64,000 nt of DNA, taken from positions 11,429-75,428 of the IMG/VR virus record IMGVR_UViG_3300009506_000015; one strand, 5' to 3'. Shown in pieces: positions 29,727 through 50,044 of this stretch. The DNA is from a virus. A program made the translations under genes and the position numbers. Positions within the stretch are counted from its first letter, which is position 1. Every line of letters begins with the position of its first letter. Under the pieces are notes generated by a model, which was not told the DNA's origin, did no database searches, and worked only from the letters and a program-made list of their open reading frames with translations.

Positions 29727-29755
29727 TTGACAAATAGAATGATGGCGGTTATAAT
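29727..29755 (+). promoter_or_regulatory. consensus sigma70 promoter (divergent, packaging operon)
   Basis: TTGACA-17-TATAAT. Confidence 0.85.
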
Positions 29756-33103: not shown

Positions 33104-33132
33104 TTGACAAGTTGGCTGGCGTGTGGTATACT
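33104..33132 (+). promoter_or_regulatory. sigma70 promoter for the portal/glycosylation operon
   Basis: TTGACA-17-TATACT with TG extension. Confidence 0.8.
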
Positions 33133-33170
33133 TGCAGTACAGTATTATCACACACATGTACAGGAGTAAT

Positions 33171-35474
33171 ATGAACGATCTCGAGGGTGTCCGAATATAC
33201 AACAAGGAGAGGGGGATCGGCGGATACGACCCGACCACGCAGAAATGGCGCGACGGTATGGGTCGTTTTGCTAAAAGGGAAGATGTAGAACGAAACCCGA
33301 TCTCGTCAGGCAGGTTCGTTGCGATACCGACATTCAACAGGGTGTCGAAGCTGGCGACGGACCTCGAGCTTATTATAGGCGGCCTGGACCCCAACCAGCT
33401 ACGCGTTGCGGAAGCCGCCGTAGAACCCATGCCGTCTGCCATGCTGGCCATGATGCGCCTGTCCGAGTTCTACTGTCGCACGGAGGGCGACATATTCCAG
33501 ACGATTGAAGTGCCTCTGGACGTCGCATTGAAGCCGCTTGAGTTCGAATCTCCTGACGCCGGGTATCAGAAGGAACTCGAAGAACTGTACAGCGAATATA
33601 ACCTAGATATATACCAGAACCTATACTATATCTGGCTGTGCAGCGGTATCTACGGGCAGGCGTTCCCCTACGAGATATGGGGTGAAAGCCCGGAAGACAC
33701 GCGTATTGTCTTGCTACCGCCCAAGAATGTGGACGTGGGCCAATCGTTCAGCCTGTACGGTGGCGGGCTGTCAATCGCCACGGATAGCAGGATACGCTGG
33801 ACGGAACAACTGATAGCCACGAACTTCCCGCCCATGATGTACAATAGGCGATCCGCAGACTGGAACGAAGCGGTAGCGCAGGGGATCAACCTGCCGATCA
33901 GGTCGGAAGACTGCTACCCTGTGCGCGAGAAGTCCCTGCCGTTCCAGCGGTACGCGGTCCCGCCGGTGGTCAGGGCCAGTAGGGCGATATCCACGCGCCG
34001 CGTGTTCGAGGAAATGCGCCGCGCCACAGTAGAAGGCTACAAGAACCAGCTCTGGCTATTCCTGCTTGGCGACGCAGAAAACAGACCGCTGCCAGACGAG
34101 ATCGCGCACCTGGCCGACGAAGTCGAGGGTATCGGCGGCGAGCGCACAGGCGTCATGGTCTGGACGGGCGACCTGCGCGTGGAGGTAATCGCGCCGAACG
34201 CACCGGACAAGATGATGGCGAACGAGACGTACATCGGCCTGACTCTGGAAGTGTTCAGGAAGATGGGCATTAGCCTGATGGTCGTGTCAGGTGAGCGCGG
34301 CCCTATGGGCGGGTCAGGCAAGACTGGCGATATGAACATCGACATCAGCATCATGCTCGAACGACTGAAGTTCAAAGTGAACCAGATGCTACGGTGGGAA
34401 CGCCAGTTCAGGAACAAGCTGGCCAAGAAGATGGGTCCGAAGGCTGTAAAGGCCAACAAGGACACCAGGGTCCATTTCGGGAAGATTGGAATGGAAGTGG
34501 AACGAGAGATTAGGGAGCGGTTACTGCCAGCATACCAGGCCGGGCCGCTGTCCATCCAGACGTTCCTGCAAGAAGGTGGCTGGAAGTGGGTCACGGAACT
34601 GGAACGCAAAAAGGACGAGGAGAAGCTCCGCGAACTGTTCAGCCCACCAGCCACGTATGCGCAGCAGGTGGTGAACCAGCAGGGTCAGGCGGTAAAGGAA
34701 ATCAAACAGGTTCCGTCACCTGGCCGACCGCCTAACAAGCTCGAGTCGCCACAGGCTATGGTCAAGAAGGAACAGAGGGACCAGCAGGTCAAGGCCGGGT
34801 TCTACCTGGAAGCGTCCGCCAATTTCGACACGTATGTCGAAGAGGTATACGACGCCTATGATCGCATGATAGCCTACAAGGACGTGCCCAGCTTCATCAG
34901 CGAACTGAAGCAGATCAACGAGGACTACATGCTGGACTTCGCCAAGGATGGCTATGAGTCCGTTGGTGGCGCGTTCGACGTGGACGCAGAATGGGTTGAC
35001 GGCGCTGTGGCGTTTGTGAATTCTTACGCAGACTCATTCGGGCAGAGGCTCGAGGGTGCGATTGACGACACAACCGCGCTCGAAGACAAACGGTACAACG
35101 CATACCTGTATCCACAGGAAGGCAGACACCTGGCGTACATGTACGGCGTGCAACAGGCCATGAAGGAAAAGGGTGCCAGGGGGTGGCGCAGGGTGCTGCA
35201 CCCCGAGCTGTCCAAGACAGGTCCGTGTCAGCAATGCATGGCGGATTCTGCGCTTGTGCATCCTATCACAGAAGGGTTCTTCGAGTTCCATCCTAACGGC
35301 GTTTGTTCCGCTCAGGGGGTCGCTTTCTACACATCGACCGCAGAAATCCCGGTAGAAATCCCCGTTCCCGGCAAGGTATTCGACAGGGAATTGATCATGA
35401 AATTCCTCAGAAAACTAGGTAGGGCTATCACTGGCCCGATACAGAACATAGTAAGAAGGGTGAGGAGTGACTAA
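33171..35474 (+). CDS. portal protein fused to a MuF/gp7-like minor head domain
   Basis: First large gene after terL; portal-like IYGQAFPY; C-terminal WRRVL...GPCQQC...FHPNGVC typical of MuF domains; SD AGGAG. Confidence 0.75.
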   Translation: MNDLEGVRIYNKERGIGGYDPTTQKWRDGMGRFAKREDVERNPISSGRFVAIPTFNRVSKLATDLELIIGGLDPNQLRVAEAAVEPMPSAMLAMMRLSEFYCRTEGDIFQTIEVPLDVALKPLEFESPDAGYQKELEELYSEYNLDIYQNLYYIWLCSGIYGQAFPYEIWGESPEDTRIVLLPPKNVDVGQSFSLYGGGLSIATDSRIRWTEQLIATNFPPMMYNRRSADWNEAVAQGINLPIRSEDCYPVREKSLPFQRYAVPPVVRASRAISTRRVFEEMRRATVEGYKNQLWLFLLGDAENRPLPDEIAHLADEVEGIGGERTGVMVWTGDLRVEVIAPNAPDKMMANETYIGLTLEVFRKMGISLMVVSGERGPMGGSGKTGDMNIDISIMLERLKFKVNQMLRWERQFRNKLAKKMGPKAVKANKDTRVHFGKIGMEVEREIRERLLPAYQAGPLSIQTFLQEGGWKWVTELERKKDEEKLRELFSPPATYAQQVVNQQGQAVKEIKQVPSPGRPPNKLESPQAMVKKEQRDQQVKAGFYLEASANFDTYVEEVYDAYDRMIAYKDVPSFISELKQINEDYMLDFAKDGYESVGGAFDVDAEWVDGAVAFVNSYADSFGQRLEGAIDDTTALEDKRYNAYLYPQEGRHLAYMYGVQQAMKEKGARGWRRVLHPELSKTGPCQQCMADSALVHPITEGFFEFHPNGVCSAQGVAFYTSTAEIPVEIPVPGKVFDRELIMKFLRKLGRAITGPIQNIVRRVRSD

Positions 35475-35476
35475 GG

Positions 35477-36583
35477 TTGAAGATACTATACGTGTATGCC
35501 GACGTAGCTGGTTCGGACGGCGGTTATTGTTCTAGCTGGCTGTGCGCGTTTCCCGTAACGGCCCTGGAGAGGGCGGGGTACGACGTGGACATGGTACACG
35601 CTACGGAGTTCATAGCAGATAGGCCGAAAGCAGACATCATCGTCGTAGAGCGTCTTCTCTGGGTTGGCAACGAGGGTTTCGATCTGTCCGAATATCCAGA
35701 TGGGCCGCGCAAGAATTCGCTCCGGTATTACACAAGGATGAACACACTGGACGCCATCACGGACGCCCAGGAGAATGGCAGCAAGGTCATAGCCGTTCTG
35801 GACGACTACTACGAAGCTCATCCAGGCGGCAAGTTCAAGTTCATCAGGGACATGTGGCTCGATGGCGTGAGCCGTGGCGTTGACATGGGCTTCAAGCCCA
35901 TAGAAGACCTGAAAGCGGTGCTCGGAGTTGTGGACGCCGTGATGACTCCGTCCAAGTTCCTGACGTTCCATTATGGCCAATATGCACACAAGGCATACTA
36001 TGTCCATAATAGGCCGATACTCGATATGTTCCCGACAAGACCAGTCGATACCGTATCCGGCGATAAGATAGTCATAGGCTGGAGTGGTACTGGACAACAC
36101 GTCGAAACGTGGGTCGATAACCCAATGATTGACGCCCTCGCAAGGCTCAGGAAGGACATTGTCGTGTCTGGCGTCATACCGGACATGGTGTGTGACATCA
36201 TAGAACATGCGGGCGTAGAGGTACGGCAGATAGGTCCGGTAGAGATAGAAAAGTTCCCGCACGTCGTGGCTGGTTACGACATAGGCATCTGCCCGCTATG
36301 GGGTGAATACGACAAGGGGAGGTCGTGGATCAAGTGGCTGGAGTGCAGCCTAATGGGCAAGCCGGTCGTAGCACAAGACCTGGCTGGCGTGTATTCAGAG
36401 TGTAAGGGTGGATATCTTGCGTCCACGCCAGAAGAATGGCACGATGCTCTCAGCACGCTCGTATATGATGAACGAGCGAGGCGTGGAGAGTCGCTAGCCG
36501 GACTGTCGTGGTCGTGGCGGCAGGGGCTAGAAGAAAATCTGGACGAACTCCTGGGGGTGTTTGATGAAGTCAGGCATGGATGA
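35477..36583 (+). CDS. GT-B (GT4-like) glycosyltransferase
   Basis: IGWSGTGQH, DIGICPL....KGRSWIKWLECSLMGKPVVA. Confidence 0.85.
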   Translation: MKILYVYADVAGSDGGYCSSWLCAFPVTALERAGYDVDMVHATEFIADRPKADIIVVERLLWVGNEGFDLSEYPDGPRKNSLRYYTRMNTLDAITDAQENGSKVIAVLDDYYEAHPGGKFKFIRDMWLDGVSRGVDMGFKPIEDLKAVLGVVDAVMTPSKFLTFHYGQYAHKAYYVHNRPILDMFPTRPVDTVSGDKIVIGWSGTGQHVETWVDNPMIDALARLRKDIVVSGVIPDMVCDIIEHAGVEVRQIGPVEIEKFPHVVAGYDIGICPLWGEYDKGRSWIKWLECSLMGKPVVAQDLAGVYSECKGGYLASTPEEWHDALSTLVYDERARRGESLAGLSWSWRQGLEENLDELLGVFDEVRHG

Positions 36584-37361
36584 ATTCAAGACGGACGTTG
36601 TGGTGCCGACGTACAATCAGTTCAATCTGGTGACACAGTGCATCGCGTCACTGTCTGGGCAGGAAGGTATAGGGACTATCATCGTTGTGGACGACGCATC
36701 CACGGACTTTGCGACCGTGGAGTATCTAAGCTATATGCACAACGAGGGGTCGATAAGGCTTCTACGATCTGACAGCAACCGTGGGTTTATCAGGTCGGTC
36801 AATGCAGGTATGAAGATGGTAGAGACCCAGTACGCAGTAATCGTGAATTCCGACACGGTGCCGACGGGCCGGTACGCGCTGTATAATCTTGTTGTGGGCG
36901 TACATAACGCCAGGGCGCAGGTGGGTGGTGCGAAGCTGCTGTTCATGCCAGGTTCGAAATACGGAAAGAGGTTCACAATCCAGCACGCTGGCATAGCGTT
37001 CGACCCAGAGCTGGTGCCCTATCATCCGTTCATGCACTTGCACCGCGACACGAAAGCCGCGAACGTTACCAGGAAGGTGAACGCCGTGACAGGGGCGATA
37101 TTCTGTGTGGAGGTCGATACGTGGACGAAGGTCGGTGGATTCGACCCAGTGTTCGGTGGTGGTGTGTACGAGGATGTGGACTACTGCCTGAGAGCTGGCG
37201 ATGTGATGTACATATCTGGTTCAGAATGGCTACATATGATGCACGGTTCACAGACGCAGGGACACGATCTGTTTGATCTGTCGGACCACAACCTGGAAAT
37301 ATTGCACAAGAAGTGGCGGCACGCGCTGAAGTGCGACCAGAAACTATTCTACGGAGTATAA
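36576..37361 (+). CDS. GT2 glycosyltransferase
   Basis: VVVPTYN, IVVDDASTD, NRGF..SVNAG, NSDT, AVTGA, YEDVDYCLR. Confidence 0.92.
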   Translation: MDEFKTDVVVPTYNQFNLVTQCIASLSGQEGIGTIIVVDDASTDFATVEYLSYMHNEGSIRLLRSDSNRGFIRSVNAGMKMVETQYAVIVNSDTVPTGRYALYNLVVGVHNARAQVGGAKLLFMPGSKYGKRFTIQHAGIAFDPELVPYHPFMHLHRDTKAANVTRKVNAVTGAIFCVEVDTWTKVGGFDPVFGGGVYEDVDYCLRAGDVMYISGSEWLHMMHGSQTQGHDLFDLSDHNLEILHKKWRHALKCDQKLFYGV

Positions 37362-37362
37362 G

Positions 37363-38382
37363 GTGAAGATAGGTGTCATCAGCGAGGTATATGGCGGCAT
37401 AACGACGCCGCCTAAGAACTACGGTGGCATTTCGGCATCGGTACACAATCTGACTGAGGCGCTTATAGCTCGTGGGCACGACGTGACGCTATTTGCACCT
37501 GCGGGTTCGTGGACTAGCGGCAGGCTGGTGGTCGTTGCCGGTGGGGACGCTCCGTCTAATGACGGGTCCAAGATGCCACCATACGTGTACGACTGTATGG
37601 CGGAAGTAGGCAACATTGATGTATGGATAGATGGGTCGCACCACAAGAGGTTCGCCCGGTACTGTAAAGAATACGAACCGTGGGTGCCGATCCTGTGCCC
37701 CTCGTGGAACCCTAACAAGGCAGACCTGCCACAGAATACCGTGTGCCAGTCGCCACACATGCCATCGGTTATAGGTGACATGCCAGATGATACTCCGTGG
37801 ATGTTCGCCGGTATCCCGTCCGAGCAATACAGCACATCAGAGGGACCATATGGCCCGGCAGTATCCATCAATGTCATAGCGCCGTACAAGGGCATCGACC
37901 TGCTCGTCCGTGCTGCGGCCAAATATAACATACCGCTTGTCCTTTATGGGCATTGCCCTAGCCAGAAGTGGTACGACCAGGCGGTGGGTCCGTATGTGGA
38001 CAAATCTGACAACATCGAGTACAAAGGGCTGATAGGCAACGAGCGCATCGACATACTGGCGCACGCCGTAGCCTCGTTCACCCTGGCGAACTGGCCCGAA
38101 CCTGGGTCCAGAGTGTCCATAGAATCGTTTGCTAGTGGCTGCCCCGTTATTGCGACGAAGTGCGGTTGTTTTCCATACTATATAGAGGACGGTATAAACG
38201 GCTCGCTCGTTGACCAAAATGAAGAATCGGTATATAATGGATGGCGACAGGTTATTGATAGTGGAGACGCCATGAGGAAAGCGGCCAGAATGACGGCGGA
38301 GACAAAATTCGATATGGAACACTGGGTATCTGGTTGGGAGACACTGATGCAAAGGGTGATAGGTGGGGAGAGGTGGGAGTAA
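37363..38382 (+). CDS. GT4 glycosyltransferase
   Basis: PPKNYGG, GHDVTLFA, KG, WPEPGSRVSIESFASGCPVIA. Confidence 0.92.
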   Translation: MKIGVISEVYGGITTPPKNYGGISASVHNLTEALIARGHDVTLFAPAGSWTSGRLVVVAGGDAPSNDGSKMPPYVYDCMAEVGNIDVWIDGSHHKRFARYCKEYEPWVPILCPSWNPNKADLPQNTVCQSPHMPSVIGDMPDDTPWMFAGIPSEQYSTSEGPYGPAVSINVIAPYKGIDLLVRAAAKYNIPLVLYGHCPSQKWYDQAVGPYVDKSDNIEYKGLIGNERIDILAHAVASFTLANWPEPGSRVSIESFASGCPVIATKCGCFPYYIEDGINGSLVDQNEESVYNGWRQVIDSGDAMRKAARMTAETKFDMEHWVSGWETLMQRVIGGERWE

Positions 38383-39404
38383 GGATTCCAGTAAGCAGAC
38401 CGACGACACATTCTATACTCAGGACTGCCACGGCGATTGGCCCCGCAATGCAGCGCGGTATCCTGACCAACAATGGGCCGATAGTCAGCGAATTTGAAAG
38501 ATCAATCTCTGAGACAGTACATGCGCCGTTCGTAGCAATGGCGAACGGGACGCTCGCCCTCGAAGCGGCCCTATCCGTCCTATTCCCCAGACCAGTACCT
38601 ATAGGCATACCGTCGTTCACGTTCGTCGCCGTCGCGTCGTCTGTAGTCAGGTGCGGACATACGCCAGTATTCATCGACATAGATATGGATACCTGGACAA
38701 TGGACCCTGACCTTGCAGCCAGGAAGATGGCGCACGTCGCCGGGTTCATCGTGGCCAACACCTTCGGTGTGCAGCCGCATGAATTCTTCAGCGGCGGCAT
38801 GATAACGATCTACGACAATGCGGAAGGGTTTGGCACGACAGACAGGCGCTTTGGGACTATGGACACGTACTCGTTCCATGCTACCAAGGTGGTCAACTCG
38901 TGCGAGGGCGGCGGTGTCGTATGCGCGTCACAGGAAGATGCTGTGGAGCTTAGGAAGTGGCGCAACTTCGGCCTGGACGGTGTCACGGGCGACGCCGACA
39001 TGGTCGGGTCCAATGCGAAGATGAGCGAAATTCACGCCGCGTTCGGCTTGCAATCTCTAAGGGACGCGGATAGACAGGTCAATGCCCGTCACGACCTGCT
39101 CGGCATGTACAAGGAACGACTGGAAGGATATGTCGTGTTTCAGTCCGGCAATCCGTTGAACTGCGTCGTGCTGGTAGACGACAGGAGTGCGGTGGAGAAA
39201 GCCCTGGACGATGCTGGCATAGACACCAGGGCGTATTTCTTCCCCATACATAAGATGAAACCGTATGCCAGGTATACCACAGAACATCTGCCGGTGACGG
39301 ACTACATATCCAGCAGGTCGTTAGCCCTGCCACTGTGGGCTGGCATGACCGCAGACACGGTAGAGTGTATTTGCGACATTATCAGGGAGGCGATAGATGG
39401 ATGA
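38373..39404 (+). CDS. DegT/DnrJ-family NDP-sugar aminotransferase, VioA-like
   Basis: LTNNGP, ANGTLAL, PSFTFVA, SFHATK (PLP lysine), EGG, NFG, GSNAKMSE. Confidence 0.92.
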   Translation: MGVRIPVSRPTTHSILRTATAIGPAMQRGILTNNGPIVSEFERSISETVHAPFVAMANGTLALEAALSVLFPRPVPIGIPSFTFVAVASSVVRCGHTPVFIDIDMDTWTMDPDLAARKMAHVAGFIVANTFGVQPHEFFSGGMITIYDNAEGFGTTDRRFGTMDTYSFHATKVVNSCEGGGVVCASQEDAVELRKWRNFGLDGVTGDADMVGSNAKMSEIHAAFGLQSLRDADRQVNARHDLLGMYKERLEGYVVFQSGNPLNCVVLVDDRSAVEKALDDAGIDTRAYFFPIHKMKPYARYTTEHLPVTDYISSRSLALPLWAGMTADTVECICDIIREAIDG

Positions 39405-40080
39405 CATGATCATCGTGGGTGCGTCTGGCGGTATCGGCGTCGTGTTAGCGAACGCGTTCCGCAAAGAATACAACCTGTACCTGACGCATAATGACAACCC
39501 GCTATATACATTCCAATCCACGCAGGTGGACCTTTCCGGTCCTGATATCTTCGGATACGTTGACAGCATTGCCAACGTCCTGTCCGACAAAGTAATCGTG
39601 GTCAACTGTGCTGGCGTTACTAGGAGCGCGATGGGCCACGTGATGGGCATACCATCGTTCGAAATGTTGCTGAACATTAACCTAGTCGGTGCGTTTAGGG
39701 TGTGCAGCGCGGTCCTGCCAATCATGCGCAAGAAGGGTTGGGGCAGGATCATCAACCTGTCGTCCGTGGTGGGCCACTTAGGCGTGCCTGGGACGAGTGC
39801 ATACTCCGCATCGAAAGCTGGCCTCGAGGGTATGACCAGGACGCTGGCCGTAGAGAACGCGTCCAAGGGCATAACGGTGAACTCGATTGTCCTGGGCTAC
39901 ATGGAAGCTGGTATGATAACATCTGTCCCAATGGGCTACCTGGAATCGGTTGTAAAGCTGATCCCGATGAAAAGGCTCGGCGGTGTGGTAAACATTGTCG
40001 AAGCGGTGAGGTTCCTGGTGGCCGCCGATTATGTCACCGGGACAAGCATAACGGTTGACGGAGGGTTGTTATGCGCGTAG
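39397..40080 (+). CDS. short-chain dehydrogenase/reductase, FabG-like
   Basis: GASGGIG, NCAG, GRIINLSSV, YSASK, VDGG. Confidence 0.92.
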   Translation: MDDMIIVGASGGIGVVLANAFRKEYNLYLTHNDNPLYTFQSTQVDLSGPDIFGYVDSIANVLSDKVIVVNCAGVTRSAMGHVMGIPSFEMLLNINLVGAFRVCSAVLPIMRKKGWGRIINLSSVVGHLGVPGTSAYSASKAGLEGMTRTLAVENASKGITVNSIVLGYMEAGMITSVPMGYLESVVKLIPMKRLGGVVNIVEAVRFLVAADYVTGTSITVDGGLLCA

Positions 40081-40604
40081 GGAAAGATGTCACAATCTAT
40101 CCGTGGTGCAGGGTTGTGCGCCCAGATATGATAGAAATAGGGGATCACGTTATCATAGACGACTTCGTGTTCCTAGACGGTGGCAGAGGGACGACCATAG
40201 GGGATTACGTGCATATCGCCGCGCATACGGCGATAATGGGTGGCGGTTCGCTTATCATGGAGGACTTCAGTGGCTTCTCCGGCGGCGTCCGGGTGTACAC
40301 TGGCGGTGATGACTATCTGGGCAATTACCTCACGAACCCGACGATACCGGACAAGTACAGGGGCAAATACTTCAGTTTCATACACATGCATAAACATGCC
40401 CTGATAGGGAGTGGCTGTATCGTACTCGCACCGCCGGAAGGTCTAATCGTAGGAGAGGGAGCTGCGGTCGGCGCGATGTCGCTCGTCAAGGACAATCTGG
40501 AACCGTGGACGTTATACGCTGGCGTGCCAGCAAAACCGATCAAGAGCCGCAACAGGGAAAGGATGCTGGCGCTTGAACGACAGCTTAGGGAGGATTTGGG
40601 ATGA
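40071..40604 (+). CDS. hexapeptide-repeat acyltransferase, VioB-like
   Basis: IGDHVIIDDF, IGDYVHIA, DDYLGNYLTNPTIP, GAAVGAMSLV, GVPAKPIK. Confidence 0.9.
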   Translation: MRVGKDVTIYPWCRVVRPDMIEIGDHVIIDDFVFLDGGRGTTIGDYVHIAAHTAIMGGGSLIMEDFSGFSGGVRVYTGGDDYLGNYLTNPTIPDKYRGKYFSFIHMHKHALIGSGCIVLAPPEGLIVGEGAAVGAMSLVKDNLEPWTLYAGVPAKPIKSRNRERMLALERQLREDLG

Positions 40605-42400
40605 AAGCCTGTATCACAACGTCGCATCTTTATGGAATGGGTGGCGGGGCTAAGGCAGTCTTCGCCGTGGCATCAGCACTGAAGCATATGTACGGGCACG
40701 TGACCATTTTTGTTAGGTCACAGATACCGGAGCTGGTTCTGGACGAAAAGCCAGACGGGATGCTGTACGCATCGTGGTATGAAGGGTGCGCGTTGGGCTA
40801 CGACGTGCTGTTCAACGTAGATCATTTCCATTACACAAAGCCGCAAGCCGCTAAGAACTATGCGTTAATATTCCATCCTCACAGTATGAACAAGCCACCG
40901 GAAGGATACGACATGCTGTTCTCCATCAGTGAGTATACACAGGTCGAGGTCGAAAGGCTATGGGGTCTAAAGTCCACGCTGTTGTATCTGCCTGTAGAGG
41001 ATGATTATTACACGGGCGTCAAAGACAAAGTAATCCTCCACGTATCCAGATTCTCCGCGCCAAACCAATATGCAGACAAGGGCCACAGGCAGATGATCAC
41101 GGCGTTCAAGTCCATATCGGACCTTGGCTGGTCATTCATCTTGGCTGGGTCTGTAGACCCGAAGCAGGCTGGGTATCTATCGTCCCTGATGGCCGATGCG
41201 TCGGGCTACGATATACAGTTTGCCATATCGCCATCTAGGAAAGAACTTCTCGGTCTATACGCCAACGCGTCTATCTACTGGCACGCAACTGGCATAGGGA
41301 TGAGGAAGGTAGTGGGCGCTCAGGAACACCTGGGCCTGACAACTATAGAGGCGATGGCTTCTGGCTGTGTCCCGGTCGTATATGGTACTGGCGGCCAGAA
41401 GGAGATCGTGAAGAGTGGCATCAACGGTATCCTTGTCGGTAGCGAGAAGGATATGGCTAGGGCTACGGTCGAGCTTACTAAGAAGCTCGACGTGTGGTCT
41501 ATATTGCAACAGCAAGCAGCGAGGAGCGGCAAGGCATGGTGTGGACTTGATGGGTTCTACGATAGGTTCGAAGAAGCATTGTCCGGTGTAGACAACGGCG
41601 TTCCATCGGGATACGTGCCGAGCTTGAAGTATAAGAGATCAGACGTGGACATCATCATACCGGTGTGGAACAGCACGACGATACACAGATGTCTCGATGG
41701 CATACCAGAGGGGCCAAATGTCATCGTCGTTGACAACGGTTCAGACAATATCGTAGAACACCCACGTATCGACAAATATATCAGACTCGAAGAAAACAGA
41801 GGGTTCAGCGGTGGCAACATGGCTGGATTTGCAGAGTCTACGAGGCCGCTCGTGCTGGCCCTAAACGACGATTGCATCCCCAGTGGTGAAATGTGGCTCG
41901 ATATCATGTTGCTGTCCATGAGCGAAGAGGGCGTCGGCGTAGTCGGCGCTAAGTTGACATACCCAGATGGCAGGCTTCAACATGCTGGCGTGTTGATAGA
42001 CTGGAACAGGGAGGATATATGCTTCCATAGGTGGTACGGCGGTGCTGACCACCCTGCGGCAAACGTGATGACTAAGGTAACGGCAGTCACCGGGGCATGT
42101 CTGTTGTGTAAGAGGGAGCTGTTCGATATGCACCCAGAGCTATACAAACTTGGCAACTATGAAGACGTCCACTTGTGTCTCAGTGCATGGATGAATGGCT
42201 ACTCGGTGATATATCAACCTGGCGCATCGTTGATACACATTGAAGCCGTCACGAAGTCGGGTACGGATGTGGATTATACAGCCACAAACAGGCCCGAGTT
42301 CGTCCGCCAGTGGCGAAGTGTGTACCTCGATTCCGAAGAGATGAAAGTCGTTCGGGAGGTGAATGATGCCTCAGGGTGGGGCAGAACTAGTAATGACTAA
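40601..42400 (+). CDS. bifunctional GT4-GT2 glycosyltransferase
   Basis: N-half EHLGLTTIEAMASGCVPV; C-half IIIPVWN, VVDNGSD, LNDD, YEDV. Confidence 0.92.
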   Translation: MKACITTSHLYGMGGGAKAVFAVASALKHMYGHVTIFVRSQIPELVLDEKPDGMLYASWYEGCALGYDVLFNVDHFHYTKPQAAKNYALIFHPHSMNKPPEGYDMLFSISEYTQVEVERLWGLKSTLLYLPVEDDYYTGVKDKVILHVSRFSAPNQYADKGHRQMITAFKSISDLGWSFILAGSVDPKQAGYLSSLMADASGYDIQFAISPSRKELLGLYANASIYWHATGIGMRKVVGAQEHLGLTTIEAMASGCVPVVYGTGGQKEIVKSGINGILVGSEKDMARATVELTKKLDVWSILQQQAARSGKAWCGLDGFYDRFEEALSGVDNGVPSGYVPSLKYKRSDVDIIIPVWNSTTIHRCLDGIPEGPNVIVVDNGSDNIVEHPRIDKYIRLEENRGFSGGNMAGFAESTRPLVLALNDDCIPSGEMWLDIMLLSMSEEGVGVVGAKLTYPDGRLQHAGVLIDWNREDICFHRWYGGADHPAANVMTKVTAVTGACLLCKRELFDMHPELYKLGNYEDVHLCLSAWMNGYSVIYQPGASLIHIEAVTKSGTDVDYTATNRPEFVRQWRSVYLDSEEMKVVREVNDASGWGRTSND

Positions 42401-42698
42401 ATATCCACCGACTAAGGAAGACCTGTGGAAGCAGAACTGCGATCTACAGGAGCGCATGTTAAAAGTGATAGAGCGCAACAACGAAGTAATAACCAAGAAC
42501 ACAGAAGCGCAAACCAGCATGAACAGCATGATTGCTTCTATGCAGTCATCCCTAGACATGCTCGTGAAGCAGTTGCTTACTGTGTCCAACGGCGTGCCGC
42601 TGAGGGTATTTATGATCGTCGTGGTCACGCTTGTGGTGATCCTGTTCATAGTTGTCGGCATCAGCATGTCGGACATTCAAAGACTAGTAGGAGGATGA
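42393..42698 (+). CDS. small coiled-coil membrane protein (possible holin-like)
   Basis: Coiled coil followed by one C-terminal TM helix. Confidence 0.55.
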   Translation: MTKYPPTKEDLWKQNCDLQERMLKVIERNNEVITKNTEAQTSMNSMIASMQSSLDMLVKQLLTVSNGVPLRVFMIVVVTLVVILFIVVGISMSDIQRLVGG

Positions 42699-42699
42699 C

Positions 42700-43488
42700 G
42701 TGTTAGTAGGGTTGACGGTTGTGAAAAATGCAACAAAGATGGGCTACCCGTGGGTAGAGTCCATCCTGTCCGTGATAGACTATGTAGACCACTTCCATAT
42801 CGGGTACGGTCATTCCGAGGATAACACGTGGGAAGTGATAGAGACGATGATGCACAGCGACCGTTTCGGGCCGAAGATATCGGTTAGCACGTTCGAGTGG
42901 CCCACGATGGACACCGGATTTGCGATAGGTGCGGCGACGAATGACGCCCTAGCGCACATCAGGAAGTTCGGCGGCAAGGTGCTATATGTCCAGGCAGACG
43001 AACTGTGGCATCCAGAGTCCGTGGAAGAAATGGTAAGGCTGTCTGGCGAGGACTATGATGCGTACTCCGTCCCATATTTGCATCTGGAACACAACTTGCA
43101 GATAGTACAGGAAGGGGCTGGCTACCAGAGGGCTATCCGCATGGTAGCCAATAGGCCAGAGATCGTCGCCCACAGGGACGCCTGGACGTTCGAGGGGTAT
43201 TCCAAGCTGCTCGACATCCATTCGCTGCCACACCCGCTTGTACATTGCAACTACTTCCTGTGGGACAACGTGCCTGTCAAGAAGTGGGTCCAGGCCACAG
43301 AGCTGTACCAGGACTTGGGTCACTACAAGATGGCGGCAGAGCTGGCGTTCGGTGAGTGGAAGAAGCACGACGTTCCGCCGGAAATGTTCTTGGAACGCAC
43401 ATCGCCATTCGCAGAACATCTGCCAGAATGTATATTGCCGATGCTAGGCAAAAGGCGATATTATGTAAGGGAAGGCTTGATACAATGA
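42700..43488 (+). CDS. GT-A (GT2-like) glycosyltransferase
   Basis: VKNATKMGYPWVESILS, SEDNT, YVQADE. Confidence 0.8.
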   Translation: MLVGLTVVKNATKMGYPWVESILSVIDYVDHFHIGYGHSEDNTWEVIETMMHSDRFGPKISVSTFEWPTMDTGFAIGAATNDALAHIRKFGGKVLYVQADELWHPESVEEMVRLSGEDYDAYSVPYLHLEHNLQIVQEGAGYQRAIRMVANRPEIVAHRDAWTFEGYSKLLDIHSLPHPLVHCNYFLWDNVPVKKWVQATELYQDLGHYKMAAELAFGEWKKHDVPPEMFLERTSPFAEHLPECILPMLGKRRYYVREGLIQ

Positions 43489-43706
43489 CGGGAGTCGATG
43501 ATTGTACAGTAACGGTAGGCGTATTCGGCACGCCTAAGATGGGAGCCTGGGAGTGCCCGCGTTGCCACATGATCAACGCGCCGTGGGTGGAGCAATGTAA
43601 TTGCCAGCCACAGCGTCGCGTCGTAACGTGGCCCGACCAAAATGCCACAGATGCGACAAGTGAGTACGGGCACGTATACCCTGTTGGGGAGGTGGTTTAT
43701 GGGTGA
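43485..43706 (+). CDS. small zinc-ribbon protein
   Basis: WECPRCHMINAPWVEQCNC. Confidence 0.65.
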   Translation: MTGVDDCTVTVGVFGTPKMGAWECPRCHMINAPWVEQCNCQPQRRVVTWPDQNATDATSEYGHVYPVGEVVYG

Positions 43707-44301
43707 TTGCGTTGTCGTACTCAGTAACCACAGAACCGGGAGCAGCGCGTTGGCTGGCGCACTATACCACCTCGGTGTGTATATGGGCGACCCAAGGCAC
43801 ATCACGAAAGAAGGTACGAACTTCGAAGCATACGATCTGTATCAAGAACACGTCAAGATGATGCCCGTGTGGACGCACCCAGAATATCTGACAATGGATG
43901 ACGTGTACCCGCCCGAGAGCTACGTGGAACTTGTGCGCAAGCGGGAGCGGCGCAAGCTGTGGGGCGTCAAAGACCCGCGACTGTGCTTCCTGTTCCCGGT
44001 ATTCCTGAGTGCCCTGTCGGAAAAGACTAAGGAAGTCAAGGTTATCTCTATGGAAAGGTCGCTAGAGGCGTCCGTACAGAGCCTCGTTGCCCGTGACGGG
44101 CTGGACTTTGACGAAGCGAGGCGCATCATCGTAGCCTACGAGAACGCAAGGTCGGGTATGCTGGAACTGTATGGACCTCATTTCCAAATGCTGGCCGTGT
44201 ACTATAGCGACCTGCGTGATAACCCGAGGAGGCAAGTTACCAGGATTGCCGATTTCCTTGGCGTGGAGGTTACTGACGAAGCGGTAGATCACATCAAATG
44301 A
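43699..44301 (+). CDS. PAPS-dependent sulfotransferase family protein
   Basis: HRTGSSAL (5'-PSB loop), WGVKDPRL, ERSLEASVQSL (3'-PB), YSDLRDNP...IADFLG. Confidence 0.85.
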   Translation: MGDCVVVLSNHRTGSSALAGALYHLGVYMGDPRHITKEGTNFEAYDLYQEHVKMMPVWTHPEYLTMDDVYPPESYVELVRKRERRKLWGVKDPRLCFLFPVFLSALSEKTKEVKVISMERSLEASVQSLVARDGLDFDEARRIIVAYENARSGMLELYGPHFQMLAVYYSDLRDNPRRQVTRIADFLGVEVTDEAVDHIK

Positions 44302-45038
44302 AGATAGTCACCTACTGTATAACCTTTCCAGACGAAGCAGACATCCTGCCGAACATGATAGCCCAGGCGAGCAAGCTGGGCGACGTATGGCTGTTCGACG
44401 GCGGTAGGGTGGGCAGTCATTGCCAGAACAACAAGCGTGCGCCATCTGGCATTATGATAACCGACGACGGTCTACAGTATGCACCCGAGGATATCGAAAT
44501 ACCGGATGATGCTATACAGAAGATAGAAGGGTGCAGGTATACCTCCCTGCCCTGGCCTGGAAGCCCTGGCAAGCAGCGCAATGCTGCGCTGGACATAATG
44601 GGTAACGAGTACGACTGGATCATCCAGAACGACAGTGACGAGGTGTGGACCGACCAGGCAGTAGAAATGATTCCCAAACTGCTAGGTGAAGTGAGTCATA
44701 ACATAACAAACATCCTGGTAAAGATGCTCCATCTAGTCAAAGACGAGGACCATTACTGGCGCAGACACTACAGGCACTTGGTACACGCGAGGATACACAG
44801 GCCGGGTTCTGCCAGGTGGGTCGAGGGCTGGCATGAACATCAGAACTACACAGGACAGAGGATGTCAACAGACATGGTCTTGCTGCACACGAAGCACCTG
44901 TTCGTGAACAGGCTACAGAGGTTCTACGGTAAGGGGCTGGAAATGTGGGGCGACCTGGACTACACGCCGCTGCCGCCAGGGAGGTTCGGTCTGACGTGGC
45001 CAGATATGGTGTACCCCAGGGAGGACAGACATACGTAA
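44298..45038 (+). CDS. GT-A (GT2-like) glycosyltransferase
   Basis: LFDGG, QRNAAL, WIIQNDSDE, WHEH. Confidence 0.75.
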   Translation: MKIVTYCITFPDEADILPNMIAQASKLGDVWLFDGGRVGSHCQNNKRAPSGIMITDDGLQYAPEDIEIPDDAIQKIEGCRYTSLPWPGSPGKQRNAALDIMGNEYDWIIQNDSDEVWTDQAVEMIPKLLGEVSHNITNILVKMLHLVKDEDHYWRRHYRHLVHARIHRPGSARWVEGWHEHQNYTGQRMSTDMVLLHTKHLFVNRLQRFYGKGLEMWGDLDYTPLPPGRFGLTWPDMVYPREDRHT

Positions 45039-45750
45039 GCGGGTCGGGTTCGCCGTAGACAATGTGGACGACGTTGTGCGCAGATATATGACCGCCGCCG
45101 GTACTGACAAGGCGATCACGGGCGAGCACTGTGGTACGTGGCGTGATTTCCATGCCTGGACATACAACCGATACTGGAAGCGCCTGAAGGTTGTGGTCGT
45201 GATGTCCAACCGTTTTGTGCCGTATCTCGAGTATGAACGACACAAGACTGGCATAAGGTTCGTCGCTCTTGATACATACGAACGCGTATTCGGCTTCGAG
45301 TTTGATAGGCGTCTATCGGCGCACGACGTCGGGTGGGGCGTGGACACGGAGCAATATGACTCTGTAGTGAATACCAGGCCGTGGTCTAGAAGTCCGGTAT
45401 TCTTCTTTGCGAATGGTATGAATGACCTCGCCAATGATATTGTCGCCCTGGGGTATGACGTCACGGACCAGATGGTACTCGGAAACGTAGCGGTCATACA
45501 GGACGCGGAAGTAGTACCGATGAACATATACGCCGCTGCCGCCGCTGGCATGGCCGTTGTTACTACGGAGAGGAACGCCAGGTGGCTGGACGCTGTAGTT
45601 GACTTTGGCGTATACACAGAGGATGGGGCCGCTGGAATAGTGAAGGCGGTGGCGGGGGCAGACTACAAATTCGCTGGCATGATGTCTAGGGACATAGTCC
45701 CGAGCATGGACGACTTTGAAAATAGGTTCAAAAACCTATTGATGTTTTAG
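45031..45750 (+). CDS. hypothetical protein, possibly a divergent GT-B glycosyltransferase; probable ATA start
   Basis: VGWGVDT and AAAAGMAVVTT recall GT-B motifs; GGGAGG lies 6 nt before ATA 45031. Confidence 0.55.
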   Translation: MRKRVGFAVDNVDDVVRRYMTAAGTDKAITGEHCGTWRDFHAWTYNRYWKRLKVVVVMSNRFVPYLEYERHKTGIRFVALDTYERVFGFEFDRRLSAHDVGWGVDTEQYDSVVNTRPWSRSPVFFFANGMNDLANDIVALGYDVTDQMVLGNVAVIQDAEVVPMNIYAAAAAGMAVVTTERNARWLDAVVDFGVYTEDGAAGIVKAVAGADYKFAGMMSRDIVPSMDDFENRFKNLLMF

Positions 45751-45785: not shown

Positions 45786-46244
45786 ATGACAGACTACTTT
45801 GAAGTTATCCACCCGCTAGAACTCAGGGACGCCGATGGCGACGAAGTGAACGCGTCCCTTCTGAGGAAGTGGTCGGACCAGGGCGATGGGTCGCACTCAC
45901 CTGCCAGCTCCGGTTCGTCCAGTGCGGTGCAGATGAATTCGGCAGATACAGCCACGGCTGCGGCAGACACGGCGGTGGCGATCACATACGCCGCCACTGC
46001 CAGCGTCGCGCACAAGTTCAGGAAGCTCGTATGGTCGTACAGTGAAGACCCGACTGGCGGTGCGCTGACCATTACCGATGGCGGGACCACCGTGTTTCAG
46101 ATCAATATCACGGCTGGTGGGCCTGGGTTCATACCGCTGGATGACATGAAGTTCACATCCAATTCCGCTGTCGTGGTGACACTAGCCGCAGGTGGCGGGA
46201 CTTGCGTTGGTATGCTGAATGTGATTGGTAAGTCCACGGAATAG
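45786..46244 (+). CDS. probable virion structural protein (beta-rich)
   Basis: Ala/Thr/Gly-rich; SD AGGAG. Confidence 0.6.
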   Translation: MTDYFEVIHPLELRDADGDEVNASLLRKWSDQGDGSHSPASSGSSSAVQMNSADTATAAADTAVAITYAATASVAHKFRKLVWSYSEDPTGGALTITDGGTTVFQINITAGGPGFIPLDDMKFTSNSAVVVTLAAGGGTCVGMLNVIGKSTE

Positions 46245-46248
46245 GGCT

Positions 46249-48039
46249 ATGGGACTAGGTGGCATTAGTGCGCTGTCTGGTTTGTCCGGCGTCGTTGGTG
46301 CGTCTCCTGGCGAACCAGCCACAAGGCTGGTGGTATCTATAGACAACTCCGCTGGTGGAGATTTGGTAGATTACCAGATAAGTGCAACCATACCATTCAC
46401 AGAAGGCATGGAGGCAGACTTCTCTGATGTCAGATTCAGAGACACAAATGGTTCCACTCTCCTTGACTTTTGGATAGAGTCGTACACAGAGAGCACTTCT
46501 GCGCTCGTGTGGGTCAAGGTTCCAAGCATAGGCGCAAGTTCCTCAAAGACTATCTATGCGTACTATGGGGACTCTGAGGCTGAAGGTGGTAGTGATATAT
46601 GCGCCACGTTTGTTTTTGGTGATGATTTCAACCGCACAAATCTAAACCCGACTTGGACAAAGAGCGCGTCTAACCCACTTACTGCCGCTGGATATGGCGA
46701 TCCTGGTGTGTTCTATGAGTCAGAGACTTTCTACATATTTGTAGATAACTTCTCAACTGGCAACATCGATCTACTAACTTCCAGTGACGGAACGACACTA
46801 TCGAGCCAGGGTTCGGTTTTAGACAAAGGTTCTGAGGGCGCATGGGACGACTACTTTGTCCGTGATCCAAGTATCGTAAAGATAGGCAGCACGTACCATA
46901 TGTGGTTTGCAGGCCAGACCGACGCGGAGGGTGGTACGACGACCCACAAAATTGGACATGCTACTGCGCCAGCTATAACTGGTCCGTGGACTAAAGATGC
47001 AAGCAACCCTATAATAGACCGTAGCGGGGATGGATACGGCTGTAACGAACCATGCGTTGTCTATGATCCAGACGACGATGGATACGAGTATAAGATGCTG
47101 TACACCTATGGGACGTTTGATAAGGGCGACGTCGGCGCTGAAAACATAGGGTATGCGTATTCATCTGATGGATCGTCATTCACACTATACGGCCAGGTTA
47201 TGGATTTTGGCGATATGCAGGACCAGTTTGTTGTCAAGGAGGGCAAGGTTTATACCTGTCTTGTTGACAACTCCTCTGCCGCTGTGCTCAGGACTATATC
47301 GAAGGACTTCATAAATTGGTTAGCGACTACAACCATCGGTGGTATTCCTGAGGGCGGAATCGGTGAGTACGATCACGACGGGGTATATGCTCCTTGCGTT
47401 GTTCTTGTAGACGGAACATACTACTGCTACTATCAATCTGCGGATGCTGGCGACCACACTATATCTCTAGCAACAACGACAGACCCTCTGAATATGGCAA
47501 ATTGGGTTAACTACGTTGCAAACCTGTTTACGATTAGTGATAACAGGATGTATAAGTCGTTAGTATCTACTGGGAGCTGGCGCTCGTCAAAGATTGGGTG
47601 GGGGTTCGACCCTCCGTATATTGTCGAGTGTGAGATAGAGTTTCAGTACCAAGATGACGGTGCATACCACGCTGGCATATCAATCGGTGATATTTCCGGT
47701 TATCATGTTATAGTCATCTTCGACGTTAACTCAGACGTTACCGCCATAGCTCTGACGCAGTATCCAGATTATGGTAGCGGCGGGTCGTCTCTTGGAACAT
47801 CTACAGATGTGTCTCTATCTCTATCTACCGTGTATAAGATTCGCGCAATCGTGACTTCGTCCTCGGTGCAGGTCGATCTATATGATGGAAGCTGGCATAC
47901 AAACATTCTGAGTAGCGAACAATCTATGCTGACAGGGTATCCAGCGGGATATGGATATAACAACGATAATGAATTTTTCATTGACAACTTCCGTATCCGT
48001 AAGTATGCCAGCACGGAACCATCCGTAGAGGTGAGTTAA
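46249..48039 (+). CDS. DUF2341-domain protein with GH43/32-like beta-propeller and ConA-like domain
   Basis: DFSDVRF..LLDFWIE..VWVKVP..IYAYYG (DUF2341); repeated WTK.ASNP, DPSIV..YHMWF, IGYA.S.DG blades. Confidence 0.75.
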   Translation: MGLGGISALSGLSGVVGASPGEPATRLVVSIDNSAGGDLVDYQISATIPFTEGMEADFSDVRFRDTNGSTLLDFWIESYTESTSALVWVKVPSIGASSSKTIYAYYGDSEAEGGSDICATFVFGDDFNRTNLNPTWTKSASNPLTAAGYGDPGVFYESETFYIFVDNFSTGNIDLLTSSDGTTLSSQGSVLDKGSEGAWDDYFVRDPSIVKIGSTYHMWFAGQTDAEGGTTTHKIGHATAPAITGPWTKDASNPIIDRSGDGYGCNEPCVVYDPDDDGYEYKMLYTYGTFDKGDVGAENIGYAYSSDGSSFTLYGQVMDFGDMQDQFVVKEGKVYTCLVDNSSAAVLRTISKDFINWLATTTIGGIPEGGIGEYDHDGVYAPCVVLVDGTYYCYYQSADAGDHTISLATTTDPLNMANWVNYVANLFTISDNRMYKSLVSTGSWRSSKIGWGFDPPYIVECEIEFQYQDDGAYHAGISIGDISGYHVIVIFDVNSDVTAIALTQYPDYGSGGSSLGTSTDVSLSLSTVYKIRAIVTSSSVQVDLYDGSWHTNILSSEQSMLTGYPAGYGYNNDNEFFIDNFRIRKYASTEPSVEVS

Positions 48040-48041
48040 TT

Positions 48042-50036
48042 ATGGGCCTGACTGGTCTATCTGGTCTATCGGGGATAAGTGGTGCGTTCGGCGGCTCCGA
48101 ATGGACGCCACTAAGCCTTGGCAGCAGTTTGGTTCTATGGCTATCTGCTGAGGATGTTGGCGGTTCAGATGGTAGTGTTATAAGTGCCTGGGTATCTAGG
48201 GAAGGCAACAGCTACCTCTTTCATCAGAACAACCTGTCCAAACAGCCCGTCCTCAAGACTGGTGCGAATGGCATCAACGGGTACAGTGTTGTCAGATTTG
48301 ACGGTTCTGATGACTTGTTGGCCTACAACGGCACACTGACGACGGCAACCGATGGGGTAGTCGTTGCCCTTATCAGGCTGTCATCTGGCTTTGCCGCATA
48401 TCAGACCGTGTTGGCGTCGTGTGATGTGGGTGCCTCAACAAGATACTTCGCCCTGCGTGCCTATGAGGACATAGACCCACGGTTTGCTATATCCATTGCA
48501 CAGCGGGATAACGACACTGCCGAAGATATGTACGGGAACTCCGAGGTAACCAGCGACGTTCCGTATGTAATGTCGTGGATCAGCACCGGGACCGAATACC
48601 GTATGCGACACAATGGCGTTGAGCAATCTGTGAATATCCAGGCTGGCGCTAACAATGGCGACTGGTTCGGTGACACGACACAGAGGGACACTGTCACATT
48701 GGGAGCCTTACAGCGAAACACTGAAGCCCAATTCCTGAAGGGTGATATATGCGAACTGGTTATATGCGCACCGAATATTTCAAGCGCAGACCTCTCCAGG
48801 CTAGAACAGTACATGTCCGAACGTGGAGATGTCGTACTTGGTGGGTGGGAGTTGGCAAGTGGCGCAGAGGGAGCGTCCGGTTCTTGGTGCTGGTTTGCAC
48901 AGCCACGAGCAGTAGTGAGTGGTGGCAAGACCTATGCTGGATGGGCGACGCCAACAGGCAAAGTTGTGTATTCAGCGATTGAAGCTGGTGAGTCGCCGTC
49001 CAGCCCATACGTCCTGCACGACTTCAGCGCACCCGATGACCATATGAACCCTGCGTTCTTTGTACGTGCCGATGGGACGCTGTTCGCTTTCTACTCCGAC
49101 CACTCGGGTGGCGCTCTGTACATCATGGAATCCGTCAGGCCATACGAGGGTGTGTGGCTCAAGGAAATCGACCTAGACAGCCAGCTAGAGGAAGCCAACT
49201 ATACATACCCGCACCCCATACAACTGACCGGGGAGACGAACGATCCGATCTACCTGTTCTACAGGTCTGCTGACTCTGGTACGTCTGGCGAAGGGTGTCA
49301 CTTTTCTACATCGGAAGACGGGGGCGTGACGTGGGCTACCAGCCAGGCGCTACTGACGAATGGCGACGAGCGACCGTACTTCGTAGTGGCCCAGAACGGC
49401 GATGACAGGATCGATATCGCCATCAACGACGGGCACCCCACCAGTGTCACAACGAACTGCACGTATCACGGCTATATCACCGGCGGCAACCTGTACAAAT
49501 CGGACGGCACACTGGTTGGGGCTATCGGTTCAGGACCATACTCACCGAGTGACCTAACCCTGGTATACGATGGCACTACATACAGGTCTTGGGTCTGGGA
49601 CATAGCCATAGACGACAGCGGCTATCCGGTCATAGCCTACGCCGACTTTGTATCCACTACCGACCACCGCTATAGATACGCGAGGTGGACTGGTTCCGCC
49701 TGGGACGACCATGAGATTGTTGCTGCTGGCGGGACTATTTATCCAGTTGCGGGATCGCAGGATTATTATAGTGGCGGCATTAGCATAGACAGGGCCGACA
49801 CGTCAATCGTGTACCTATCGCGTGAGGTGAGTGGAGTGCATGAAGTATACAAGTACACGACTTCCGATGGTGGTACGAACTGGTCGGCGGTTGCGATAAC
49901 GTCGGGTTCGGAGAATGGCAACTACCGACCATTCGTCCCGTACAATGCCATTGAGGACTCCCCGATGTTCTACATGGCCGGGGTGTACACGACATACGAA
50001 GATTTTGCGACAGAGATCACGGCATATCTGCCGTAG
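48042..50036 (+). CDS. LamG/ConA-like domain plus BNR-repeat propeller, probable virion carbohydrate-binding protein
   Basis: LVLWLSA, VRFDGSDD; GSWCWF..PRA, DDHMNP, YTYP, SEDGGVTW and TSDGGTNW Asp-boxes. Confidence 0.75.
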   Translation: MGLTGLSGLSGISGAFGGSEWTPLSLGSSLVLWLSAEDVGGSDGSVISAWVSREGNSYLFHQNNLSKQPVLKTGANGINGYSVVRFDGSDDLLAYNGTLTTATDGVVVALIRLSSGFAAYQTVLASCDVGASTRYFALRAYEDIDPRFAISIAQRDNDTAEDMYGNSEVTSDVPYVMSWISTGTEYRMRHNGVEQSVNIQAGANNGDWFGDTTQRDTVTLGALQRNTEAQFLKGDICELVICAPNISSADLSRLEQYMSERGDVVLGGWELASGAEGASGSWCWFAQPRAVVSGGKTYAGWATPTGKVVYSAIEAGESPSSPYVLHDFSAPDDHMNPAFFVRADGTLFAFYSDHSGGALYIMESVRPYEGVWLKEIDLDSQLEEANYTYPHPIQLTGETNDPIYLFYRSADSGTSGEGCHFSTSEDGGVTWATSQALLTNGDERPYFVVAQNGDDRIDIAINDGHPTSVTTNCTYHGYITGGNLYKSDGTLVGAIGSGPYSPSDLTLVYDGTTYRSWVWDIAIDDSGYPVIAYADFVSTTDHRYRYARWTGSAWDDHEIVAAGGTIYPVAGSQDYYSGGISIDRADTSIVYLSREVSGVHEVYKYTTSDGGTNWSAVAITSGSENGNYRPFVPYNAIEDSPMFYMAGVYTTYEDFATEITAYLP

Positions 50037-50044
50037 GAGGGAAA

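Follow-up and report, generated by a model that had tools for sequence, protein, structure and literature searches.

To our knowledge, glycosylation of the phage virion is documented for no more than a few mycobacteriophages, which use small sets of genes for it. In Che8, a Ser/Thr-rich C-terminal tail has reportedly been described as the acceptor, and glycans are said to have been shown on the C-termini of the capsid and tail-tube proteins. In the accounts of the work of Freeman et al. (2023) given in PMC12363180 and PMC12619734, capsid and tail-tube proteins are glycosylated in the mycobacteriophages Che8, Corndog and Myrna. Here we describe an island of 13 tightly packed plus-strand open reading frames (ORFs), many of them predicted glycosyltransferases (GTs), at positions 35477-45750 of a 64-kb stretch of viral DNA. 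This window, the whole stretch that was analysed, comprises bases 11429-75428 of the record IMGVR_UViG_3300009506_000015, which is 75,428 bp long, has 144-bp direct terminal repeats and is rated complete. We consider the chances about even that the island is a cytoplasmic line for building glycans, coupled to assembly of the head, whose products are attached to virion proteins. Virion glycosylation is favoured because the island has a conserved position in the portal unit, because the GT-A families of two of its enzymes (I and K) were found only in phage and metagenomic DNA, and because one of them (I) is also found among the virion genes of an unrelated 44-kb phage.

The mycobacteriophage systems (Che8 gp108-110, Corndog and Myrna) resemble the island in that they consist of soluble phage GTs without export machinery, and theirs decorate subunits made in the cytoplasm. 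They are made up of a small handful of genes, whereas the island, judged by its genes alone, has 13 genes with seven or eight GT domains, amino-sugar acylation and a sulfotransferase. Between Che8 gp110 or Corndog gp38 and the island proteins B, C, G and I, no homology was detectable in a comparison made by tblastn only. In complexity and logic the island appears closer to the glycosylation clusters of giant viruses than to the mycobacteriophage genes. The Mimivirus fibril cluster and the chlorovirus capsid glycans likewise join a DegT aminotransferase and an N-acyltransferase to several GTs and act at the particle surface; however, these viruses have eukaryotic hosts and different enzymes, and the likeness lies in the logic of the pathway and implies no shared family.

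A further parallel is anthrose, the sugar that caps the protein-linked BclA glycan of the exosporium in Bacillus anthracis/cereus; this glycan is synthesised in the cytoplasm of the mother cell and ends up on a particle released later. A C-4 aminotransferase (D, AntC-like) and an AntD-type N-acyltransferase (F) are both present in the island. The anthrose pathway has an AntA-type hydratase where the island has a FabG-like reductase, and the acyl group therefore probably differs; the GTs are unrelated. Many GTs together with sugar-nucleotide enzymes are also known from lytic marine phages, namely the cyanomyoviruses S-SCSM2R, with 13 GTs, and P-SSM2, in which they are read as auxiliary genes acting on the cell wall (PMC12801897). 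The island block described here is fixed in the portal unit.

A sequence-only reading of the window had described 13 tightly coupled genes with three GT-B domains, four GT-A domains and one doubtful GT, together with sugar-modifying enzymes and a sulfotransferase. Searches with Pfam, AlphaFold2 (AF2) models compared by Foldseek, and hhalign reproduced this tally exactly: GT-B folds were found in A, C and the N-terminal half of G, GT-A folds in B, the C-terminal half of G, I and K, and L is the doubtful case. The sugar-modifying enzymes (D, E and F) were likewise recovered as family matches, and the sulfotransferase (J) scored above the cut-off of its family.

The GTs differ in how easily they are recognised. 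The core gene A (35477..36583) encodes a GT-B (GT4-like) enzyme with a PF13692 score of 25.7 bits, just under the cut-off. Its comparison with C by hhalign (12%) was not significant, and its fold was settled by structure prediction (predicted local distance difference test, pLDDT, of 80; top Foldseek matches GlgM, MshA, BshA and PimA). A is retained in distant relatives at 24-50% identity. B (36561..37361) is a GT2 enzyme of the GT-A fold (PF00535, 64.9 bits), and C (37363..38382) a GT4 enzyme of the GT-B fold (PF00534, 53 bits, plus PF13439). The core gene G (40601..42400) encodes, according to Pfam, a two-domain GT4 + GT2 protein that is a candidate chain-extending enzyme and is present in all relatives at 37-61% identity. 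I (42700..43488) has no Pfam match and belongs to a phage-only family; its AF2 model (pLDDT 95) gave GT-A matches to WrtF, TarS, K4CP, SunS and SpsA (E = 1e-7). It is the most conserved island protein, with 70% identity to its counterpart in the sister phage introduced below, and its QADE motif, of the DxD type, is invariant across 24 homologues. K (44298..45038), a GT-A-like paralogue of I and also a core gene, matched PF00535 at 20.3 bits, and hhalign aligned it with the I family at 90% (E = 1.4e-6), the DSDE/QADE motif included. In the 228-aa protein L (45064..45750), nothing beyond a C-terminal signature of the GT-B type was recognised (43 columns aligned by hhalign, 78%), which makes it a doubtful GT.

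Three adjacent genes form a putative rare-sugar branch. D (38334..39404, likely start GTG 38373) encodes a pyridoxal phosphate-dependent sugar 4-aminotransferase of the DesI/AntC/perosamine-synthase type (PF01041, DegT family, 185 bits). DesI was its top NCBIfam match, and its matches in the PDB include 3ju7, DesI (2po3), perosamine synthases and Mimivirus L136 (E = 7.6e-11), the best of them all being C-4 aminotransferases. E (39397..40080) was assigned by family search to the classical short-chain dehydrogenases/reductases (SDRs), with FabG and acetoacetyl-coenzyme A (CoA) reductase as its likeness. F (40071..40604) is a left-handed beta-helix (hexapeptide) N-acyltransferase that matches the PDB 3vbi-3vbp series over its full length (residues 2-172, E = 1e-36); entry 3vbn of that series is the Bacillus cereus enzyme AntD, which performs the N-acylation step in the making of anthrose (PMC6031040). 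The assignment of D and F to C-4 amination and N-acylation of deoxythymidine diphosphate (dTDP)-4-keto-6-deoxyglucose, yielding an N-acylated 4-amino-4,6-dideoxyhexose, is well supported by these family matches, and E plausibly supplies the 3-hydroxyacyl thioester. Domain searches of the island ORFs found no nucleotidyltransferase or 4,6-dehydratase, no RmlA/RmlB and no AntA-type enoyl-CoA hydratase, the FabG-like SDR being present instead.

J (43642..44301) encodes a protein probably of the sulfotransferase fold. Its PF00685 (Sulfotransfer_1) score is 29.6 bits against a cut-off of 22, with a match that covers the C-terminal 45 residues only, and weak PDB matches (E = 0.001-0.01) point to cytosolic and protein-tyrosine sulfotransferases. 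The likely start of J at ATG 43699 places the motif SNHRTGSS, a candidate for the 5'-PSB loop of PAPS-dependent sulfotransferases, near the N-terminus. Between I and J, in a variable slot, lies a 73-aa zinc-ribbon ORF (43485..43706, WxCxxC...CxC), which is joined to gene I by an ATGA overlap at the stop codon of I. By hydropathy, none of the 11 island enzymes has a membrane segment. The sole membrane protein of the island is H (42363..42698), which is 111 aa long and combines a coiled coil with one membrane segment at its C-terminal end, where hydropathy peaks at residue 81 (3.45); the same slot is occupied by a 34%-identical homologue in two relatives (L015/L016). H was considered as a flippase of the GtrA/ArnE type, and this was rejected because it has a single membrane segment and a coiled coil. 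Taken together, the product of the island is probably a complex, acylated and sulfated sugar chain.

The island directly follows the portal gene. An exact scan of the 64-kb window for the promoter pattern TTGACA-N16-18-TATAMT gave three matches against a chance expectation of 0.03; each of them lies in the structural region, on its plus strand. The first sigma-70 consensus promoter (29727-29755) precedes the terminase genes, P2 (33104..33132; TTGACA-17-TATACT, with TG) lies just before the portal gene, and P3 (51608..51636; TTGACA-17-TATAAT) lies upstream of the genes for scaffold, cement protein and capsid. These predicted promoters divide the virion genes into a terminase unit, a portal and glycan unit and a unit for scaffold, capsid and tail. 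The island most likely belongs to one transcription unit starting with the portal, given that P2 is its predicted start, that no terminator-like site was found on the plus strand between 33132 and 47378, and that the gene junctions are tight (-49 to +35 nt, mostly overlaps of 1-10 nt). The co-transcription with the portal proposed earlier is thus borne out at the level of predicted signals. The island had also been placed between portal and capsid genes; the portal does adjoin it, whereas the capsid gene lies 8 kb downstream, separated from the island by three sugar-hydrolase-like genes, a small protein with two membrane segments, a scaffold-like gene and the cement gene.

The portal gene itself (33123..35474, plus strand, 783 aa) lies after the gene for the large terminase subunit (TerL) and is 63% identical in the sister phage. 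Its likely true start is ATG 33171, which is preceded by AGGAG. Sequence and profile searches of the 783-aa protein against Pfam, PHROG and the PDB gave no match, and its closest ESM-Atlas clusters are viral Portal_Mu and Phage_Mu_F (0.96). The C-terminus carries a conserved HP...C..C pattern, which we take to be of the MuF-protein type. From the position after TerL, the Atlas clusters and this C-terminus, we read the ORF as a portal of the Mu type fused to a MuF-like minor-head-protein domain.

To see how far this arrangement extends, we turn to its relatives. The sister phage IMGVR_UViG_3300002446_000068 (L005; 72,957 bp) has a syntenic island at 38-70% identity, which is comparable to the values for its portal (63%) and capsid (62%). 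It has no J gene; at that spot a TnpB gene is found on the opposite strand. This TnpB/IS605 OrfB gene, with a Cas12f-like TNB domain (L005:11170-12330, minus strand), stands where the present phage has its zinc-ribbon and sulfotransferase genes. More distant relatives, down to 29-41% portal and 35% capsid identity, keep these genes in the succession portal ... A ... G ... I ... K ... scaffold-cement-capsid. The relatives with the core include a 79.7-kb contig and a groundwater contig, with implied genomes of about 80 and about 132 kb. The 264,808-bp contig of ERZ1292632 carries one 20.8-kb locus twice (L024/L025), 132,033 bp apart, and is probably an assembled dimer of a phage genome of about 132 kb from this clade. 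The conservation of the A-G-I-K core indicates that the island is old and that a deep phage clade keeps this core in the portal unit.

The other genes are less constant. The D/E/F trio is restricted to closer relatives, and the slots between core genes hold ORFs that we named from sequence motifs alone, without a family search: two sulfotransferase-like types (TPGRTGT and HIPKTGGSS loops), a type like methyltransferases that use S-adenosylmethionine, an HxGH cytidylyltransferase-like type, and HNH-endonuclease-like ORFs in L021 and L024. Two distant relatives also have island ORFs with PF00749, the catalytic domain of class-I Glu/Gln tRNA synthetases (L021:11765-12535 and L018:3706-4401), which could perform an aminoacyl-adding step on the glycan.

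The families of I and K appear confined to phages. Searching a large protein collection gave 40 homologues of I, all metagenomic and several on contigs of 74-81 kb, while no match was found in 185,579 GTDB species genomes (one per species) or in 50,697 phage records; the K family was not found in cellular genomes either. In a 44-kb phage that is unrelated and whose portal and capsid belong to different families, the virion genes likewise include an I homologue; its neighbours are a GT-methyltransferase, an ORF resembling cytidylyltransferases and a GT2 gene.

On this basis, we propose that a multi-sugar chain would be built directly on at least one virion protein before or during assembly. The host would provide the common nucleotide sugars, including dTDP-4-keto-6-deoxyglucose, and 3'-phosphoadenosine 5'-phosphosulfate (PAPS). 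D would then aminate C-4 of the keto-sugar, E would reduce a 3-ketoacyl thioester such as acetoacetyl-CoA, and F would move the 3-hydroxyacyl group to the amine, giving an anthrose-like N-(3-hydroxyacyl)-4-amino-4,6-dideoxyhexose. The phage-only distribution and high conservation of I and K suggest that they, possibly with A, begin the chain on a phage acceptor protein. G, with its two-domain architecture and its cellular relatives in polysaccharide pathways, would extend the chain, and B and C would attach further sugars; J would sulfate the product with PAPS from the host. Such a coat may shield or stabilise the particle, or change its adhesion to surfaces. In its fullest form, the proposal is that phages of a previously unrecognised marine and groundwater clade assemble, in the cytoplasm and directly on their virion proteins, a sulfated glycan that is long, has a repeating structure and contains the anthrose-like N-(3-hydroxyacyl) amino sugar, with I and K priming on protein, G as a repurposed extender, a capsule-like coat as the result and the decoration swapped between lineages at the slots. 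All of these elements together are a tentative proposition, which we think is rather improbable as a whole.

Several observations weigh against glycosylation of the virion. We looked for a Ser/Thr-rich C-terminal tail on the capsid, cement and tail proteins and found none, leaving the reading with no acceptor protein. The capsid C-terminus (...LTITA) offers only a conserved ...L-x-I-T-(A/S) without an extension, which may be purely structural. When B, C, G and I were compared by tblastn with the 50,697 phage records, no mycobacteriophage was matched. The timing of island expression, moreover, is one that we infer from gene order. Three further findings, namely the small membrane protein H retained inside the island, a polytopic membrane ORF in the island of the sister phage and the genomic setting of the cellular relatives of G, likewise count against it, and these also speak for a different target of the enzymes.

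In this alternative, the soluble enzymes would remodel a lipid-linked envelope polymer of the host at the cytoplasmic face of the membrane, and an ATP-binding cassette (ABC) transporter or ligase of the host would export the product. The polymer could be an O-polysaccharide, a teichoic-acid-like polymer or an S-layer glycan precursor, and the benefit could lie in masking the receptor, which would keep progeny from being wasted on infected cells or debris, or in excluding rival phages. H could tether the enzymes to the membrane. The polytopic ORF of the sister phage (278 aa, L005:4906-5742) lies between B (GT2) and C (GT4). It has no Pfam match, and the same slot holds sulfotransferase-like ORFs in other relatives and is empty in the present phage. 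Full-length cellular homologues of G (30-34% identity) were found in Dehalococcoidia, other Chloroflexota and one Verrucomicrobiota genome. The one in the Dehalococcoidia genome CP070630.1 lies in a cluster of the order RmlA/RmlB ... Wzm/Wzt/methyltransferase/G homologue/GT4, which is a typical ABC-transporter-dependent polysaccharide locus of a lipid-linked pathway. The link between these loci and the island is the GT4-GT2 homologue of G, which there adjoins a GT4 gene and rml genes; the phage has neither Wzm/Wzt nor the terminating methyltransferase, and its G is without the N-terminal extension of about 160 residues found in the cellular forms. TarP and TarS are among the GT-A fold matches, although this is a generic match, and large GT clusters of cyanomyoviruses are usually read as acting on host polymers (PMC12801897).

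The gene content of the phage speaks for the other side. Hydropathy was computed for every ORF, and nowhere in the 75,428 bp of the genome does a single ORF reach four predicted membrane segments. Neither flippase, polymerase, ABC exporter (Wzm/Wzt), priming transferase nor ligase was found anywhere in it. In six-frame family searches of the complete genome, with control genomes that responded in each case, neither a Bac_transf priming enzyme nor a tyrosine integrase was matched. Since no integrase was found, there is no sign of lysogenic conversion; conversion of the GtrABC/Oac type needs a GtrA flippase, a membrane-bound GtrC or acyltransferase and a temperate phage. The phage thus has nothing of what independent export of a lipid-linked glycan needs. 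The absence of flippase, polymerase and GtrAB noted in the sequence-only reading is therefore correct, but it does not follow that the host surface is no target. Prophage TarP is a soluble phage enzyme that modifies a host polymer without an exporter of its own, export being left to the host, and the homologues of G in Wzm/Wzt clusters point the same way. Host-polymer remodelling is set against by the missing export genes, by the fixed place of the island in the portal unit across deep divergence, instead of an early or moron position, by the absence of the I and K families from cellular genomes and by the shortened N-terminus of the phage G. We regard it as unlikely, though still as the main competitor.

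A second alternative is suggested by the junction at which the island lies. The island could be cargo at a hot spot between portal and scaffold genes, expressed late. Its product would then be an oligosaccharide, either free or secreted, a glycolipid, a small molecule carrying sugars, or a glycan attached to some protein outside the virion. A more distant relative (L028, capsid 41% identical) has different carbohydrate genes at the same junction: two ABC importer permeases, a GT2, a cytidine monophosphate-sugar synthetase and a rhamnosyl O-methyltransferase. The permeases (BPD_transp_1) lie with a 475-aa ORF upstream of the scaffold gene (L028:3203-6343). This, too, weakens the case for the virion, and because sugar importer permeases stand at the same position, the portal-scaffold site may in part serve as an accessory-cargo hot spot. 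Mobile elements at the site, with TnpB in the sister phage and the HNH-like ORFs of L021 and L024, and the three extra sugar-hydrolase-like genes of the present phage agree with this. The A-G-I-K order, on the other hand, is kept at 35% capsid identity, which is more in keeping with a fixed role in the particle than with exchangeable cargo, and we consider the cargo explanation distinctly unlikely.

The third alternative is DNA hypermodification, in which the sugars would be placed on modified bases of the phage to block restriction. Phage enzymes put mono- to trisaccharides on 5-hydroxymethylcytosine, and such DNA-glycosylating clusters can also adjoin structural genes (Pyle et al., bioRxiv preprint 10.1101/2023.12.21.572611). 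The late location of the island, which had been held against DNA modification, is therefore no argument by itself; the weakening of this explanation comes from the missing base-preparing enzymes. Searched in six frames, the complete genome yielded nothing at E <= 1 for a thymidylate-synthase-like hydroxymethylase (PF00303; 10 of 14 control genomes responded), a C5-cytosine methyltransferase (PF00145; 12 of 14), TGT/DpdA (PF01702; 14 of 14) or a TET/JBP dioxygenase (PF12851; three of 14, below the cut-off). The known routes to a sugar-accepting DNA base are thus missing. We know of no DNA glycan that approaches seven or eight GT domains with acyl and sulfate tailoring, and the island demands go far beyond those that are known. 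The island genes also lie away from the replication genes. A nucleoside 2-deoxyribosyltransferase-family protein (PF05014, E = 1.6e-8) is encoded in the early region (window 1-29839, minus strand) and might speak for base modification, yet overall we hold this explanation to be very improbable. Virion glycosylation stands as the best single reading. Of the earlier proposal, the gene inventory and the connection with the portal have held up; no target protein was found, and the tblastn searches showed no homology to the mycobacteriophage enzymes.

The remainder of the genome is laid out as follows. Up to 29839 the minus strand encodes replication and host-interaction proteins (SNF2, DnaB, SSB, Rad52, Dam, ThiF, an AAA ATPase and a protein with sigma-70 region 2). 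The virion genes are on the plus strand from 30051 onward, with TerL at 30808-32481 (phrog_2). After the island, the P2 unit continues with four further plus-strand genes (45786..51604), for a Ser/Thr-rich 152-aa protein, a protein with DUF2341 and GH43, a protein with a virion-structural N-terminus and BNR_4, and a 519-aa protein. All four are missing from the sister phage, which has an ORF for a concanavalin A-like lectin in place of the GH43, BNR and 519-aa genes. The three large phage-specific genes at 46225-51604 (GH43, BNR_4 and 519-aa) follow the island within the same unit, and their products are possibly sugar-binding or sugar-cutting fibres attached to the head or tail. For the 519-aa protein, sequence and profile searches of the PDB gave nothing useful, and the Atlas pointed only weakly to a fold like that of sugar hydrolases (TIM-barrel hydrolase), all with scores below 0.9; its closest Atlas clusters are often from Chloroflexota. 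The scaffold gene is immediately preceded by an ORF of 98 aa (51657-51953), for which two membrane segments are predicted and which is conserved in the sister phage (57% identity). The cement protein (53417-53875, plus strand, PF22758) and the major capsid protein (53890-54843, plus strand, phrog_2522) follow, and after the capsid come the tail genes, one ORF running past the end of the window.

The sequencing runs that match the phage are marine-sediment metagenomes of one study only, and one of these runs may be the source sample. The phage has no close relatives among the 50,697 phage records, in which a megablast search with 20 kb of the late region was empty and tblastn with TerL gave only two remote matches. 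A search with a capsid profile for related prophages in 401 Chloroflexota genomes gave just three weak partial matches, and no related capsid gene was found in two genomes that bear G homologues. There is a hint of Chloroflexota as host.

Compared with the mycobacteriophages, what appears to be new here, as far as the genes tell, is a set of non-homologous enzymes in a far larger pathway, with its own rare-sugar branch and putative sulfation, and with a conserved core and variable slots in a new clade. If the island does glycosylate the virion, some environmental phages would devote about 14% of their genome to a glycan that rivals the glycans of giant viruses in complexity. This would bear on the stability of phages, on their adsorption to particles or mucus, on recognition by antibodies or lectins and on host range, and the phage-only I and K families would be new soluble protein-glycosylating enzymes.

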